Positions 20,962 through 25,384 are shown, counted from the first letter of the stretch. The stretch is DNA of 64,000 bases from an uncultured bacterium (GCA_938005705.1 CALLML010000048.1:2066-66065), one strand, 5' to 3'. Numbers and translations are program-made. The notes: generated by a model not told the origin, from the sequence alone.

Positions 20962-23499
20962 TCAAGACACGGTCAGTTCCGCCGCTGGCAAACCGGCGCT
21001 CGGAATTTGAATCGTGCGGATCGGTTTCGATGAGCATGGACTCCGATCCGACGAAGGCGAGGCTTCCCGTGCGCCCTCCAGGATTGCGAGGGCATTTTCC
21101 CACCGACTCGCGCGGGCTTTGGCGAGTGCGCGTTCCCGCAAATAGGCGCGCAAGGCAGCATCATCCCGCAATTGACGCATGGCCGCGGCGAAGCCGGCGA
21201 CGGAAGCATCGGTCACGATGCCCGAACCGTGCGTGCCCACGATTTCCGGCGGGCCACCGCGATTTGCGACGATCGCCGGCAGACCGGAGGCGTGGGCCTC
21301 CAGCACGACATTGCCGAAGGTGTCAGTCAGGCTAGGGAACACGAACACGTCCGCGCTCGCATAGGCCGCCGCCAGCGCGTCTCCGTGTAACGCGCCAGTG
21401 AAAGCGATGTCCGATCGCCGATACGCCTGGCGCAAATCGGGCAGTGCCGGGCCGTCGCCAACGATGAGGAGATTGGTGCGGGCGTCGCCGTGTTCTCCGG
21501 TCAATCGAAGGTACGCCTCGAGCAGGGTACGGACGTTTTTTTCTTCCGAGACACGCCCGACATAGAGGAACTTCAGCTCGCCGTGGAGTCCCCACCGCGC
21601 CCAAAAATCCGGGTTGCGGCGGTCCGGCCGAAAACGCCGCGTGTCGATGCCGCGGGGCAGGACGGCCAGTCGGGACCGGTCGAATCCGGCATGCGCCAAT
21701 TGTTCGAGATAGAAGCGGCTGGGGGCATACACCGCCTCCATGTTGCCGTAGAACCAACGCATGTACCGCCAGCCCAATTCCTCCATAATATCGTCATCCG
21801 TCCATTGCTTGATATATCGGGGAAAATCGGTGTGATAGAGCCCGCGCACGTGCAACCCCAACAGACGAGCCGCGAGCCGGCCGGCCAGGCCCACGGGACC
21901 CGGCGTCGAGAGAATCAACTCATCGAACTGCTGCTCCTCAATCCAGGCGATCATCTCGAGCACCGGCGGTACAGTGAGCGTCTGGTCCTTGTATTCAGGA
22001 AACACAAACGTGCCGACCGGCTCGAAGTTCTTCAGCGGGAACGAGGCCTTCGCGGTCTCCGGGCGGCAGGTAACCACCGTAATGGGCCGGCCCCGTTCTG
22101 CCGCCAGCCCGGCCAGCGTGCGGATGGTGTGCGCCACCCCGTTGATGTCATCGAAGGTGTCGGTCAGCCACGCGCGTTTTGGTCCGGCGGGCCGGGGTTC
22201 ACGCGCCGAGGGCCAGCGTGCTTCCACCCGTCTCAACAGCGCCACGTCCTTGTGTTGCGCGGCGAAGGCCGTGACGTAGGGGGCCACGCCCAGCAAAATC
22301 GGTCCCAGGGCCGATAACGACTGAATGGCCTCGACGATTCGTCCGGATCGGATGTGCGCAACCGTCTGTTGTGCGAACGTGAGCGTGAGTTGATGCGCAA
22401 TACGGCAGGCCGCCTCAAACCGCTGCCGCTCGGCGTCGGGCGGAGGCGCCGGATGGTGGCCTTCCGCCTCCGTTTGGCGGCGCCGCTCCACCAGCGCGGT
22501 AAATTCATCCAGGATGGCCCGTTCGATATCGTTGAGGCGACGCCGCCGGAAATGGCGCACGACCTTTTCGATCGGGCGCGTCACCGCCGAACCGACCGCC
22601 GAGCGCCGGCCTCGCGAGGAGGACTTTTCAGGATGTGCGCCGGAGAGACGCCGAAGAATCGCGCCGATGATGGAAGGGTCCGAGCGCCCGCCGCGCAGAA
22701 ACCGGCTGTGATAGTAGCTGTAGGCGATGTGATAGAGGCTGTGTGCCAGCCGCAGGCTCGACCCGTCGCGGCCGCCCGGCTCATGGCACCCTTCGCGCAA
22801 ATGTGAAAGGAACTCGTGAACTGATTCCGCACGGGGCGTCACGGTATGCGCGCCACAGGCGTAAAGCCCGCTGTGATCGTCGCTACCGCCGGTAAGCCGC
22901 TTGATCCACGGCTTGGGGCCGGCCGGCGCAATGCCGTGACGGTCCGCCAGAGCCGCGAGGTCCTCCAGCGTCAGCGCACGGAAGATCGCATTGGCCAGAC
23001 GACACGCCCGGGGATCGCGCGAGCCGTTGATGCCTTCGAACCGATTGAACATCAACAGCAGCTTTTCAAAGTGCTCGATTGTCAGTTTGTCATTCACCCG
23101 AAACAGCGGATGGGCGATAGCATGAGCAATGTTTTCGCGCAGGAGCAGGTTGCGCAAATCGTAAATGTTTTCGCGCGCGCGCTGCAGAGCGTCGAATTGC
23201 GCCTCCGTCACGCCCCAGACGAGGCAATGTATCTTGCACCCGTCCTCGGGAAAGTAGGTCGTCAGCTCGCTAGACAGGAACACGCCCGGCAGATCGGCGA
23301 TTTCCAACGCACCGCTCAGGCTGTTGTGGTCGGTGATGGTGACAAAATCCATGCCGCGCTCCCGGCACACGCCGTAGAGCTCGCGCGGTTCAACGAAGCT
23401 TTCGGGCGCGCCGATCCGACGCAGAAACCACTCGCTCGGGCGATCCGAGTGTTTGCTGTGAACATGCAAATCCGCGCGCGACACACGCTCCGCAATCAT
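20962..23499 (-). CDS. Fusion protein: N-terminal PHP-domain metal-dependent phosphoesterase + C-terminal family-4 glycosyltransferase (GT4)
   Basis: PHP motifs: DLHVHSKHSD, FVTITDHNS, GGSDDH. GT4 C-terminus: EEKN...LLIVGDGP...VFVFPSLTDTFGNVVLEAHASGLPAIV (E-x7-E). GGAGG RBS. Confidence 0.75.
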   Translation of the reverse strand: MIAERVSRADLHVHSKHSDRPSEWFLRRIGAPESFVEPRELYGVCRERGMDFVTITDHNSLSGALEIADLPGVFLSSELTTYFPEDGCKIHCLVWGVTEAQFDALQRARENIYDLRNLLLRENIAHAIAHPLFRVNDKLTIEHFEKLLLMFNRFEGINGSRDPRACRLANAIFRALTLEDLAALADRHGIAPAGPKPWIKRLTGGSDDHSGLYACGAHTVTPRAESVHEFLSHLREGCHEPGGRDGSSLRLAHSLYHIAYSYYHSRFLRGGRSDPSIIGAILRRLSGAHPEKSSSRGRRSAVGSAVTRPIEKVVRHFRRRRLNDIERAILDEFTALVERRRQTEAEGHHPAPPPDAERQRFEAACRIAHQLTLTFAQQTVAHIRSGRIVEAIQSLSALGPILLGVAPYVTAFAAQHKDVALLRRVEARWPSAREPRPAGPKRAWLTDTFDDINGVAHTIRTLAGLAAERGRPITVVTCRPETAKASFPLKNFEPVGTFVFPEYKDQTLTVPPVLEMIAWIEEQQFDELILSTPGPVGLAGRLAARLLGLHVRGLYHTDFPRYIKQWTDDDIMEELGWRYMRWFYGNMEAVYAPSRFYLEQLAHAGFDRSRLAVLPRGIDTRRFRPDRRNPDFWARWGLHGELKFLYVGRVSEEKNVRTLLEAYLRLTGEHGDARTNLLIVGDGPALPDLRQAYRRSDIAFTGALHGDALAAAYASADVFVFPSLTDTFGNVVLEAHASGLPAIVANRGGPPEIVGTHGSGIVTDASVAGFAAAMRQLRDDAALRAYLRERALAKARASRWENALAILEGAREASPSSDRSPCSSKPIRTIQIPSAGLPAAELTVS

Positions 23500-23659
23500 C
23501 CTACGCCTCCTGCCTTCCGATCGGGCTTGTTCACTCGCAGGGTCAATATGCCGCCGCGGCTTTAGAATCCGGTGAGCCGTCGGTTAGAAATGCGTGCGGG
23601 AAATGAAAGGGGGGGCGCATTATTCGGAGGCGGTCGCCTTCGCCGCGCACTCCGGCGCG

Positions 23660-25384
23660 TCATCGAAACAGGGTCTCGATGCCCATGGCCTGCTTTTCGG
23701 CGAAATCCGGAATATTCTCGCGACGAAAACGGCGCAACAACGGATAGAGCCAGGACAGAAATCGGACCGTGACGATACGGTCGAACAGCCGATATCCTCG
23801 TTGATCACGAACGAACACCCACAGCAGGCGCCGCAGTCTTTCGCGAGTCAGGCGGATTTGCCGGAAGTTCAGCACGACGTGATATGCCGTCCGGTGTCGT
23901 CGTCGGTAGCGCCGAGCCAGCGCCCGCAGGCGCTGCGCTGTCTCCTCGCGGAACGAGCGAAAATAATACTCCCGGGCCGCGGCGAGGATTTCGAAGGTGT
24001 CGTATTGAAAATGGAGATCGTCTATGGGCAGTCCCAGCGCGGGCGCCATCTCGATCATTTCGCGAATCTTCTCCAGCGCGGACCGTCCCTCCCGAATCGC
24101 CGCCTCACCGTCGGAAACAAAACACCGCAGAATATTCCGCATGGAGGCGTTGATGATGATGTGATCCCAGTACACCCACAACAGCGGTGGAATGCGCAGG
24201 CGGCGGAAGAAAAGCTTTTTGGAAGAGAACTCACGCAAATACAGCAATTCACGGATAACCTCCTCGGAAAGCCGCAGAAAACGCGTCAACCGCACCGGAT
24301 CGGCTTCAGGCAGGCGCTCGCGCGCGAAGTCGGCGATGGCCTCCTCCGTCGTCATGCCGTCGCGCAGAATGCGCATGGCTACGTGGACGTTCAGCTCCGT
24401 CCAGATCGAACGATCGTCGAGAAACGTCAATCGGCGGAACGGGCCCCATCCGCCCGTTTGGCACCAGATCGAGGCGCCGACAACCACATTCGGACGGTCG
24501 CGGAGCTGAAGCGCATAGTTTTCGCAGTCCCAGCCGATGAACGCCGGATATTCGCCGAACCCTTCGTATTCGCGCCGCGCCTGAAGCTCGATGATCTTTC
24601 GATGGGTCGTGCGGAAAAATTGCTTATTCAGCGGCAGAAAGCGAAAGAAATCCGACTCCCCGTGTTTGAGTGAGATGATCAGCGCCGGACTTTCGATGCC
24701 GTCGAAGGTGCGACGGAACGTCTTCCGATTCCACATCAGGTCGCCGATGCGATAAGCCCCAACACTCCAGGTACGAAAGATGAGAGTGCGGCGATGACGC
24801 TCAAACACCGGAAGCAGGGCGTGCAGCAAACGGCGGGCATGAGTTGGACGCCGAATGATGATCTCGCTGAGAAAATCGCCTTCGACATCCACCCCGTCCG
24901 CCTCGCCGATGCGGGTGATGATGCCGGACAGCTCCGGAAAGTCCCGGAACAATTGGTCGCAGGCGCCAGCGAGATAATCGCTGACGGCGCCGACGCGCCG
25001 TCGGGTTTTCCGGCGAATGACCTCGTTGAAATACATGACGTCCGTGGTCAGAAACACGCCCAGCCCCTTGCCGGAGGCGATGCCGAAAAGGCTGGAATAC
25101 AGGGCGCGGTAGTCACCGATCGTCCGGCGGAGCGGGTCGGGGTAATCGGCGTCGTCCGCCAGATGGGCAACGTCATCGAGCGTCACCCCCGTGAAGCCGA
25201 GCCGGGCCGCCGCATCCGTGACGCGCTCGAAATCCGTGCGGATCTGCGCGGCGCGCTCCGGCAGGATACGGCCGTTTGTCTCGATTGCGCGGAAAGGTAT
25301 TTTCGACCAGTTAATGCGCCGTGAGCGGTCAGCCCGGAAAAACGGCCCGATCGCATCGAGTAAAAAGAGTCGGTTGTCATTCAC
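23660..25384 (-). CDS. Hypothetical protein (574 aa), probably co-transcribed with the PHP-GT4 gene
   Basis: Long ORF with a GTG start at 25384. Same strand and directly upstream of the PHP-GT4 fusion. No motif recognised. Confidence 0.5.
   Translation of the reverse strand: MNDNRLFLLDAIGPFFRADRSRRINWSKIPFRAIETNGRILPERAAQIRTDFERVTDAAARLGFTGVTLDDVAHLADDADYPDPLRRTIGDYRALYSSLFGIASGKGLGVFLTTDVMYFNEVIRRKTRRRVGAVSDYLAGACDQLFRDFPELSGIITRIGEADGVDVEGDFLSEIIIRRPTHARRLLHALLPVFERHRRTLIFRTWSVGAYRIGDLMWNRKTFRRTFDGIESPALIISLKHGESDFFRFLPLNKQFFRTTHRKIIELQARREYEGFGEYPAFIGWDCENYALQLRDRPNVVVGASIWCQTGGWGPFRRLTFLDDRSIWTELNVHVAMRILRDGMTTEEAIADFARERLPEADPVRLTRFLRLSEEVIRELLYLREFSSKKLFFRRLRIPPLLWVYWDHIIINASMRNILRCFVSDGEAAIREGRSALEKIREMIEMAPALGLPIDDLHFQYDTFEILAAAREYYFRSFREETAQRLRALARRYRRRHRTAYHVVLNFRQIRLTRERLRRLLWVFVRDQRGYRLFDRIVTVRFLSWLYPLLRRFRRENIPDFAEKQAMGIETLFR

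Follow-up and report, generated by a model that had tools for sequence, protein, structure and literature searches.

Results

A Locus of Two Co-Oriented Genes

This report concerns a pair of genes in a 64,000-nucleotide stretch of DNA from an uncultured bacterium (GCA_938005705.1, CALLML010000048.1:2066-66065), which was analyzed whole and is referred to here as the window. The larger gene (20962-23499, minus strand, with its ATG at 23499) encodes a protein of 845 residues, hereafter the fusion, that joins a phosphoesterase domain of the PHP superfamily to a glycosyltransferase of family GT4. Its companion lies upstream on the same strand, separated from it by 160 bp, and encodes a protein of 574 residues (23660-25384, minus strand, with a GTG start at 25384). 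A ribosome-binding site, GGAGG (23506..23510, minus strand), can be read in the sequence 5' of the ATG of the fusion gene. An earlier annotation made from the nucleotide sequence alone (the sequence-only reading) had placed two open reading frames (ORFs) of these sizes on one strand and had described the larger as a PHP domain fused to a retaining GT4 domain. Our own reading of the ORFs confirmed the former, and the complete ligand set and the Pfam scores reported below bear out the latter.

The AlphaFold2 (AF2) model of the fusion had an overall pLDDT of 81.7 and consisted of three parts plus a disordered stretch comprising the last 35 residues. The three parts were a confident alternating β/α region (aa 1-247), an all-helical region (aa 248-430), and a GT-B fold (aa 442-807). 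Invariant ligands and family-level profile matches, together with the model, assign aa 1-247 (22759..23499) to a PHP-superfamily metal phosphoesterase domain; the predicted helices (aa 248-428) and the profile of charge and hydrophobicity delimit a helical middle domain at aa 248-440 (22180..22758); and Pfam, NCBIfam, BLASTP, a neighbor-joining tree, and Foldseek place a retaining GT4 domain of the GT-B type at aa 441-810 (21070..22179). What remains is a tail (aa 811-845 and the stop codon, 20962..21069; all four features on the minus strand) with a pLDDT of 24-35, which is not conserved among homologues; these are about 800 residues long and cover about 95% of the query.

The N-Terminal Domain Is a Divergent Member of the PHP Superfamily

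The sequence-only reading had called the metal site of the N-terminal domain a textbook example. The motifs that it quoted, DLHVHSKHSD (aa 10-19), TITDHNS (aa 54-60), and GGSDDH (aa 204-209), are all present and the set of ligands is full, but the adjective did not survive: the window protein scored 13-14 bits against the Pfam model for PHP (PF02811), for which the cut-off is 26.4. The model for CehA/McbA matched it with an E value of 3e-6. When 28 divergent members of the fusion family were each scanned singly against Pfam and NCBIfam, the NCBIfam model for CehA/McbA metallohydrolases matched 25 of them (best E value 8.8e-14), Pfam PHP matched 22 (best 9.4e-5), and PHP_C matched 14 (best 2.3e-7). 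The models for 3',5'-nucleoside-bisphosphate phosphatase and RNase RNM matched 19 and 12 members, respectively. Alignment of the family profile to RNase AM (TrpH) of Escherichia coli with hhalign extended over 125 columns (E value 9.4e-5, probability 59%) and put the HxH, TDH, E, and H motifs in register. Profiles of the domain found nothing significant among PDB sequences, one yielding no match and another yielding 3e0f at an E value of 0.73.

Conservation of the putative active site was pronounced. Among 45 aligned full-length homologues, residues H12, H14, D57-H58, E78, H91, H130, and D207-D208-H209 were invariant or nearly so, and a count by alignment columns across 116 cluster representatives revealed that all eight core ligand positions (H12, H14, H58, E78, H91, H130, D208, and H209) were kept in 103. 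Among the 13 representatives with an incomplete set, five were truncated at the N-terminus and two resembled degenerate pseudo-enzymes. The model of the window protein had a pLDDT above 90 across most of aa 40-250. We conclude that the N-terminal domain is very probably a genuine, if divergent, PHP-superfamily domain.

In its motifs (HxH, (T/S)DH, E, H, AHP, and GSDxH), in the PHP_C-like sequence that follows the core, and in its family-level matches to hidden Markov models, the domain resembles PHP enzymes of the TrpH/COG0613 type, which include RNase AM, 3',5'-nucleoside bisphosphate phosphatase, and CehA/McbA. It differs from them in that the window protein falls below the Pfam gathering threshold, in that a conserved insert of 14 residues specific to the fusion family, RPSEWFLRRIGAPES, follows the HxH motif, and in that helical and GT4 domains follow it in the same chain; the substrate that we propose for it, moreover, is a lipid and not a nucleotide.

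Two distant full-length fusions, P0325 and P0374, have lost several of the metal ligands: the 11 columns that were checked read DRHDPENTCDY and DHLDVKHTGDY, respectively, as compared with DHHDHEHHDDH in the window. Judging from these substitutions, their PHP domains are probably catalytically dead and retained as scaffolds.

The GT4 Domain Is Related to Lipid Glycosyltransferases of the Agt Type

Both lobes of the glycosyltransferase scored above the gathering thresholds of Pfam (Glyco_transf_4, 78.5 bits, aa 452-622; Glycos_transf_1, 92.8 bits, aa 640-791), and the domain is complete by Pfam (aa 452-805). No HAD domain was found in the 845-residue protein by Pfam. The motif FVFPS..DTFGNVVLEAHASG lies at aa 719-739. 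The sequence-only reading had taken the GT4 signature to be E-x7-E; the actual signature is D726-x7-E734, a conservative variant of it that is invariant across the family, as are R649, K654, and H556.

In BLASTP comparisons the domain aligned end-to-end with Agt2 of Pseudomonas aeruginosa (31% identity over 365 residues, E value 7e-48, 156 bits) and over 258 residues with Agt1 of the same species (34% identity, E value 2e-29, 104 bits). Agt2 (PA0842) is the synthase for glucuronic acid diacylglycerol (GADG) and Agt1 (PA3218) is the synthase for monoglucosyldiacylglycerol (MGDG) (PMC8528852). Among GT4 enzymes of solved structure, MshA was the best match to the window protein at 58 bits, and sucrose-phosphate synthase (SPS) scored 34. 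Foldseek returned the GT4 structures BshA, MshA, and PimB' with E values of 1e-16 to 1e-20 (TMt 0.76-0.80). The top NCBIfam model was GlcN_PG_synth, which describes GlcNAc-phosphatidylglycerol (PG) synthase, at 125 bits as compared with a cut-off of 480; sucr_P_syn_N scored 40.7 bits against a cut-off of 576. GlcN_PG_synth was also the top model for the stand-alone GT4 proteins that are linked to homologues of PlcP (see below), probably because no model for Agt is among the NCBIfam matches. In a neighbor-joining tree, which is crude and carries no support values, the GT4 domains of the fusions formed a clade inside the Agt-like radiation and sister to the PlcP-linked stand-alone enzymes. From these comparisons the domain appears to belong to the Agt/GpgS group of lipid-glycosylating enzymes, with Agt2 and Agt1 as its nearest characterized relatives.

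We also used GT4 sequences as tblastn queries against the plasmid database PLSDB. That of the window found only two distant matches, from Bacillus, and that of a PlcP-linked stand-alone GT4 led to the enzymes of P. aeruginosa. The latter were recognized by their neighbors: a glycosyltransferase gene in the order cerN-plcH-plcR-GT, which we take to be PA0842 (Agt2), and an LpxH-like gene with a glycosyltransferase gene and then cyaB, which we take to be PA3219 and PA3218 (PlcP and Agt1). The two gene groups are carried by NZ_CP131792.1 and NZ_CP137508.1 (our loci L167 and L168), which are labelled as P. aeruginosa plasmids. Both groups match core loci of the PAO1 chromosome (cerN-plcH-plcR-PA0842 and PA3219-PA3218-cyaB), so that each record may represent either a piece of a chromosome or a hybrid replicon of very large size.

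A Basic and Hydrophobic Helical Domain Joins the Two Enzymes

The middle domain contains 32 lysine and arginine residues and 17 aspartate and glutamate residues, for a net charge of +15; the domains on either side of it, PHP and GT4, range from neutral to acidic. The middle domain also harbors the most hydrophobic stretch of the entire protein (aa 388-415, with a KD19 maximum of 1.66 at aa 388-406) and its strongest amphipathic helices, the highest hydrophobic moments being at aa 300-320. An alignment of homologues revealed a conserved core, LGPxxLGxAPYxTAFxxQHKDE. On the strength of this composition, we propose that the domain could serve as a peripheral membrane-binding module.

The Fusion Is Widespread and Has a Shortened Variant

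More than 120 full-length homologues with 50-79% identity to the fusion were found, and the non-GT4 part as sole query retrieved 1,607 representative clusters. At least 530 species-level genomes harbor the family, with PHP domains that are 57-85% identical. The carriers are labelled as Kiritimatiellota, Lentisphaerota, Planctomycetota, Acidobacteriota, Fermentibacterota, and Desulfobulbaceae; most belong to the PVC superphylum and the Acidobacteriota, and some are of lineages known mainly from anoxic habitats. The metagenome-assembled genomes (MAGs) among them come from many different metagenome projects, and Kiritimatiella glycovorans, Tichowtungia aerotolerans, and Pontiella agarivorans are cultured carriers. 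In about 65 of 83 loci, which span several phyla, the PHP, helical, and GT4 domains share one reading frame; the fusion is the dominant architecture and is conserved.

A second and genuine architecture, seen in about 40 of 150 cluster representatives, is a protein of 598-672 residues that contains the PHP and helical domains but, of the GT-B fold, just the N-lobe. We found it in loci L045, L057, L068-L070, L073, and L083, and also in L054, L074, L077, L079, and L080; in seven of these 12 loci a complete stand-alone GT4 gene follows directly. The GT4 of L057 is 49.6% identical to Agt2 (E value 2e-123) and that of L045 is 44% identical to Agt1 (E value 1e-92). The shortened forms thus keep the acceptor-side lobe, which ties the PHP domain to the lipid or acceptor side of the reaction. 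Given that these split relatives adjoin GT4 genes similar to Agt1 and Agt2, and given the placement of the fusion in the tree, a PHP protein with an Agt is a direct parallel of PlcP with an Agt. The sequence-only reading had reasoned that an incomplete ligand set, or homologues always split into genes of unrelated function, would tell against it; the ligand set proved complete, and in the split relatives the neighbor is a GT4 of the Agt type.

A conserved protein of about 206-227 residues, with no Pfam match, adjoins the fusion in 11 loci of the Pontiella/Tichowtungia type (for example, L003 11384-12067 and L002 8131-8751); it does not occur in the window. The setting in K. glycovorans (L001 11539-16045) is unlike that in other loci: 3' of the fusion lie genes for a 338-residue protein with no Pfam match, a 422-residue glycosyltransferase (Glycos_transf_1) unrelated to Agt, and a 581-residue protein of the α-amylase family.

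The 574-Residue Protein Belongs to a Large Family with a GH67-Like Fold

The sequence-only reading had described the upstream gene as an orphan, but 1,774 homologues of its product were found. The protein had no match among Pfam, NCBIfam (GH67 family models included), or PDB sequences. Its AF2 model (pLDDT 85, pTM 0.88) is a β/α barrel followed by a helical C-terminal domain, and the best Foldseek matches were the GH67 structures 1gql and 1mqq (E value about 1e-10, TM about 0.5, 10-13% identity); structures of GH138, GH20, and GH84 ranked next. A hydrophobic N-terminal leader is absent. These features suggest a cytoplasmic protein that is GH67-like at the level of its fold and that represents a large uncharacterized family.

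The resemblance to GH67 α-glucuronidases, and to GH138, GH20, and GH84, lies in the predicted catalytic-type barrel followed by a helical domain and in the many invariant Asp, Glu, and Trp residues after barrel strands. In contrast to these enzymes, the protein is about 100-130 residues shorter than the matched chains (670-708 residues), so that one of the three GH67 domains is probably missing, and its gene is linked to Pho and lipid-remodelling genes instead of polysaccharide-degradation genes. The gene is present in 18 of 69 eligible fusion-centered loci and is directly adjacent to the fusion in nine, in three different arrangements; this supports a functional link between the two, in line with the suggestion of the sequence-only reading that the gene may be a third component. 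It is not near the fusion in Kiritimatiella and Tichowtungia.

PHP Fusions and PlcP Homologues Alternate beside the 574-Residue Gene

We next consider gene neighborhoods, as judged from 56 loci centered on the 574-residue family with sufficient flanking sequence and from the 83 fusion-centered loci. Around the 574-residue family, the fusion was present in nine loci and a homologue of the phosphoesterase PlcP in 11; both occurred together in none. Seven of the 11 loci with PlcP also carry an Agt-like stand-alone GT4, and the PlcP homologue of L086 is up to 52.7% identical to PA3219 (E value 6e-95). Conversely, a PlcP-like gene was found in none of the 83 fusion-centered loci. De novo clustering of neighbors around the 574-residue family revealed an OmpR-type regulator similar to PhoB in 14 loci (with TIGR02154 as top model), a kinase similar to PhoR/PnpS in 10, the GT4 cluster in eight, DUF3419 in five, and an S-adenosylmethionine (SAM) methyltransferase in four. 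The last two we take to be similar to BtaA and BtaB. The operon pstSCAB-phoU adjoins the fusion/574-residue pair in L086, L096, L100, and L153 and adjoins the fusion in L023 and L026, and pst, phoU, or porin genes lie within 10 kb of the fusion in 10 of the 83 loci. No link to osmotic stress was found in the genomic or cis-regulatory context.

Clusters of plcP with agt, and of plcP with btaBA, that are accompanied by Pho boxes are published signatures of lipid remodelling in bacteria (PMC4796936, PMC8528852). Agt-dependent synthesis of MGDG and GADG under phosphate limitation has also been shown in anaerobes, with no DAG (diacylglycerol)-supplying enzyme reported (PMC5193443).

As a separate matter, DUF3419 (E value 5e-102) and a SAM methyltransferase occur together with PlcP, an Agt-like GT4, PhoBR-like proteins, and the 574-residue family in L128 (13695-17630), L131 (12054-15402), L118, and L146, and DUF3419 lies within 10 kb of the fusion in five loci from Planctomycetia and Verrucomicrobiota (L046, L050, L076, L082, and L083). 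These clusters suggest betaine-lipid synthesis in those lineages.

A Pho-Box-Like Repeat Precedes the Fusion Gene

Within the 160-bp gap, 88 nt 5' of the ATG of the fusion gene, lie three direct repeats in an 11-bp phase, CTAACC-N5-CTCACC-N5-CTAAAG (23560..23587, minus strand), which resemble a Pho-box operator. This is the sole site in the window, on either strand, that matches at 14 or more of 18 positions.

The repeat recurs in the family. The words most frequent 5' of the fusion gene are TTCTAACC-like, and 11 of the 94 regions upstream of it contain the sequence [CT]TAA[CT]C at least twice in an 11-bp phase, as compared with 0.22% of random windows. At a threshold of 15 of 18 positions, a model of the triple repeat matched 17 places in 4.3 Mb, 12 of which are upstream of the fusion (among the 94 loci); at 14 of 18 positions it was found in 17 of the 94 upstream regions. 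When 60 permutations of the hexamer were compared, the true one and its frame-shifted equivalent scored 12 and the next best scored 4. The repeat is also found in front of other genes. It precedes pstS-C-A-B-phoU-phoB in L023 (13340), a divergent region between porin and pstS genes in L100 (13340) and L026 (8356), the porin gene directly upstream of the fusion in L019 and L028, a phoB-like gene in L005 (6561), and ppk1 (9361-11583) in L034 (9296), and the repeats of L086 (9755 and 11917) precede a porin-pst operon (Porin_5) and a phoB-like operon. On the basis of its distribution, we regard the CTAAC[CA] triple repeat as a candidate Pho box of Kiritimatiellota, Lentisphaerota, and neighboring lineages.

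No Rfam element, convincing terminator, or sigma-70 promoter was found around the two genes of the window. The lack of a full sigma-70 promoter would be expected if the site for an activator replaces the -35 element. A weak match to a -10 element, CATATT (23545..23550, minus strand), can be read 9 nt 3' of the third repeat. Given the single site in the intergenic gap, the fusion appears to have a PhoB-type promoter of its own and probably is not simply co-transcribed with the 574-residue gene.

Other Features of the Window

The convergent neighbor of the fusion gene is an ORF of 859 codons (17880-20459, plus strand) whose product has no match in Pfam, NCBIfam, or PDB sequences. We considered it as a part of the system and rejected it: it recurs near the fusion in none of the 83 related loci and is therefore probably unrelated. 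ORFs antisense to the two genes (for example, 21490-22317 and 23594-24673, plus strand) were set aside as artefacts of high G+C content; ORFs of the same kind gave rise to a spurious cluster of neighbors.

Two genes farther away may be mentioned. A single ORF of 1140 codons with a TTG start (5689-9111, minus strand) combines the domains of a 2-oxoacid dehydrogenase E1 (E1_dh, Transket_pyr, and Transketolase_C), a lipoyl-attachment domain, and a FabH-like KAS III; it is an unusual fusion that possibly links the decarboxylation of branched-chain 2-oxoacids with the priming of fatty-acid synthesis. An 846-residue protein (28479-31019, plus strand) with DUF5060 and a weak match to GH5 (cellulase) is probably a secreted glycoside hydrolase.

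Discussion

A Model for the Fusion

We propose that the fusion is a Pho-regulated enzyme of membrane-lipid remodelling that joins the PlcP and Agt steps in a single protein, and we hold this to be on balance the probable account. The domain architecture, the conservation of ligands, the homology of the GT4 domain to Agt, the patterns of neighborhood, and the distribution of the motif were observed directly; what we infer is control by Pho, the nature of the lipid substrates and of the sugar donor, attachment to the membrane, and the part played by the 574-residue protein. In this model, a PhoB-like regulator bound at the CTAACC triple repeat would activate the promoter of the fusion gene. The basic and hydrophobic middle domain would dock the enzyme at the membrane, on its anionic inner side, where the PHP domain would strip the phosphorus-containing head group from a glycerophospholipid in the manner of a phospholipase C, or would dephosphorylate phosphatidate, to yield DAG. 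The Agt-like GT4 domain would then move a sugar from a UDP-sugar to DAG to create a phosphorus-free glycolipid, the sugar being glucose and/or glucuronate by analogy with Agt1 and Agt2. The GH67-like protein would act in the same starvation module; as a speculative guess, it could turn over the glycolipid head group, for example as an α-glucuronidase-like hydrolase.

The claim is that the PHP domain works like PlcP, not that it is a PlcP: the domain is of the PHP type and lacks a match to Metallophos (the calcineurin-like domain of the PlcP type), and PlcP homologues occur only in loci free of the fusion. A broader proposal follows the same lines, namely that the PHP domain represents an unrecognized class of lipid phosphoesterase that has taken the place of PlcP in Kiritimatiellota, Lentisphaerota, Planctomycetota, Acidobacteriota, and further lineages, that is in most cases joined by a membrane-binding helical domain to an Agt-type glycosyltransferase and channels DAG to it, and that works together with the GH67-like family and the CTAAC[CA] Pho box. 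This we advance tentatively, with somewhat less than even confidence.

Several observations weigh against the model. Nucleotides, RNA, or small phosphoesters are the substrates of the nearest PHP families, and no PHP-fold enzyme is known to act as a phospholipase C or a phosphatidate phosphatase. The Foldseek lists for the model of the fusion were filled by GT-B proteins and did not confirm the PHP fold. The GT4 domain is only 31-34% identical to Agt1 and Agt2, which leaves room for a different lipid acceptor, for example PG, the acceptor of GpgS. As to regulation, 77 of the 94 upstream regions of the fusion have no motif at the threshold of 14 of 18 positions, the binding of PhoB is deduced solely from the genes that the motif precedes, and the PhoB-like regulators score 244-257 bits, just under the equivalog cut-off of 296. 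The window itself contains no pst, pho, plcP, or btaA genes. Finally, about half of the loci centered on the 574-residue family have unrelated neighbors, the motif was found upstream of none of its 105 genes, and the neighbors of the fusion in K. glycovorans could point to soluble glycan metabolism.

Alternative Pathways

How do other explanations fare? One possibility, which we consider unlikely, is that the GT4 domain makes a glycolipid and that the PHP domain hydrolyzes the released UDP or nucleotide, thereby relieving product inhibition and recovering phosphate. The nearest PHP families (3',5'-bisphosphate nucleotidase, RNase AM, and cyclic-phosphate dihydrolase) are what such a function would lead one to expect, Pho control would be compatible with it, and PlcP is in the LpxH-like group, whose reaction cleaves a UDP-linked pyrophosphate. 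It is at odds, however, with the shortened members, which drop the nucleotide-binding C-lobe and keep the N-lobe with the PHP and helical domains. Moreover, the strict alternation of PHP and PlcP beside the 574-residue gene suggests equivalent roles for the two, and a basic, hydrophobic middle domain would be superfluous for a soluble nucleotide.

The sequence-only reading had favored a soluble glycoside pathway, in which a small phosphorylated acceptor receives a sugar from the GT4 domain and is dephosphorylated by the PHP domain to give a compatible solute or other small glycoside. Its general idea, a phosphoesterase and a glycosyltransferase in one pathway, holds. The pairs on which it was modelled (SPS/SPP, TPS/TPP, GgpS/GgpP, and MshA/MshA2) likewise consist of a retaining GT-B enzyme and a phosphoesterase that are sometimes fused; the PHP superfamily includes phosphomonoesterases; MshA, SPS, and GlgM, which have phospho-acceptors, are among the solved relatives of the GT4 domain; and the halophile K. 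glycovorans carries genes for a glycosyltransferase and an α-amylase-family protein after the fusion. In those pairs, however, a HAD phosphatase acts after the glycosyltransferase on a soluble sugar phosphate, whereas here the GT4 domain groups with lipid glycosyltransferases and the phosphoesterase probably acts first, on a lipid. The GT4 domain is nearer to Agt2 and Agt1 than to MshA, SPS, BshA, or GlgM, and far nearer by bit score (156 and 104 bits) than to MshA (58) and SPS (34). The conserved neighborhood, too, bears on phosphate starvation and the remodelling of lipids and holds nothing related to osmotic stress, and the Pho-box-like operator is common to pstS, porin, phoB-like, and ppk1 genes. 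When the membrane-binding appearance of the middle domain and the presence of the family across many phyla and metagenome projects are also considered, a compatible-solute function seems very unlikely.

A third scheme, to which we also assign little probability, has the GT4 domain acting on the head group of a phospholipid in the manner of GpgS, with the PHP domain providing the lipid or processing it, for example by converting phosphatidylglycerol phosphate to PG; the product would be a lipid of altered charge, and no phosphorus would be saved. GpgS, the GlcNAc-PG synthase of P. aeruginosa, is a cytoplasmic GT4 that acts on a membrane lipid, PG (PMC12713373), and its model is the best curated NCBIfam match to the fusion. 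That match is far under the cut-off, however, and the same model was uppermost for the PlcP-linked, Agt-like enzymes. Nor are partners like the deacetylase GpgD and the flippase GpgF recurrent near the fusion, and Pho control favors the saving of phosphorus.

Least likely of all is an envelope glycopolymer pathway, in which the GT4 domain would build a phosphate-free polysaccharide (as in the case of teichuronic acid) and the PHP domain would be a CpsB/YwqE-type tyrosine phosphatase or a polymer trimmer: PHP-family tyrosine phosphatases do control capsule synthesis (PMC2364625), there were weak NCBIfam matches to TuaC and exopolysaccharide glycosyltransferases, and a glycoside hydrolase-like partner could act on a polymer, but the PHP domain fits models of the TrpH/CehA type with no CpsB-type model among its matches, the GT4 domain is nearest to Agt1 and Agt2, and BY-kinases, Wzx/Wzy, and polyprenyl-phosphate glycosyltransferases are not recurrent nearby.

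Relationship to Known Pathways and Implications

The model of Pho-regulated lipid remodelling by the fusion has its closest counterpart in the PlcP-Agt renovation pathway, whose known members are PlcP of S. meliloti and Phaeobacter, Agt of A. tumefaciens, SAR11, and D. alaskensis, and PA3219, PA3218, and PA0842 of P. aeruginosa. Both systems pair a phosphoesterase with a GT4 related to Agt1 and Agt2, both have a phosphorus-free glycosyl-DAG as product (proposed in our case), and both are found in the company of a Pho-box-like element and PhoBR-like, pst, and btaAB-like genes. They differ in that the phosphoesterase here is a PHP-fold domain, non-homologous to the calcineurin-like, LpxH-like PlcP; in that both activities would reside in a single chain of about 800 residues, connected by a helical domain of about 190 residues; in the presence of a GH67-like partner gene; and in that the fusion is mainly found in MAGs and isolates of Kiritimatiellota, Lentisphaerota, Planctomycetota, and Acidobacteriota, whereas the characterized systems are proteobacterial. 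In the literature we found no prior description of a PHP-glycosyltransferase fusion, of lipid remodelling in these phyla, of a PHP enzyme in the role of PlcP, of the GH67-like partner family, or of a Pho box of the CTAACC type. Thus, the type of pathway is already known, but its PHP-fold version fused to an Agt-type GT4 appears to be new.

The exchange of phospholipids for glycolipids is a major bacterial answer to phosphorus scarcity and shapes the lipid biomarkers of the environment, and what is known of the pathway comes mainly from Proteobacteria, in which it depends on PlcP and Agt. If our model is correct, then many bacteria, of considerable ecological importance, rely instead on a PHP enzyme that is not homologous to PlcP and is fused to a glycosyltransferase, and surveys based on plcP would give too low an estimate of lipid remodelling. 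A lipid-directed activity would be added to those of the PHP superfamily, Kiritimatiellota and Lentisphaerota would gain a candidate Pho box, and a large uncharacterized family of GH67-like proteins could be assigned to the response to phosphate starvation. Because Kiritimatiella glycovorans, Tichowtungia aerotolerans, and Pontiella species are cultured carriers of the fusion, the model is directly testable.

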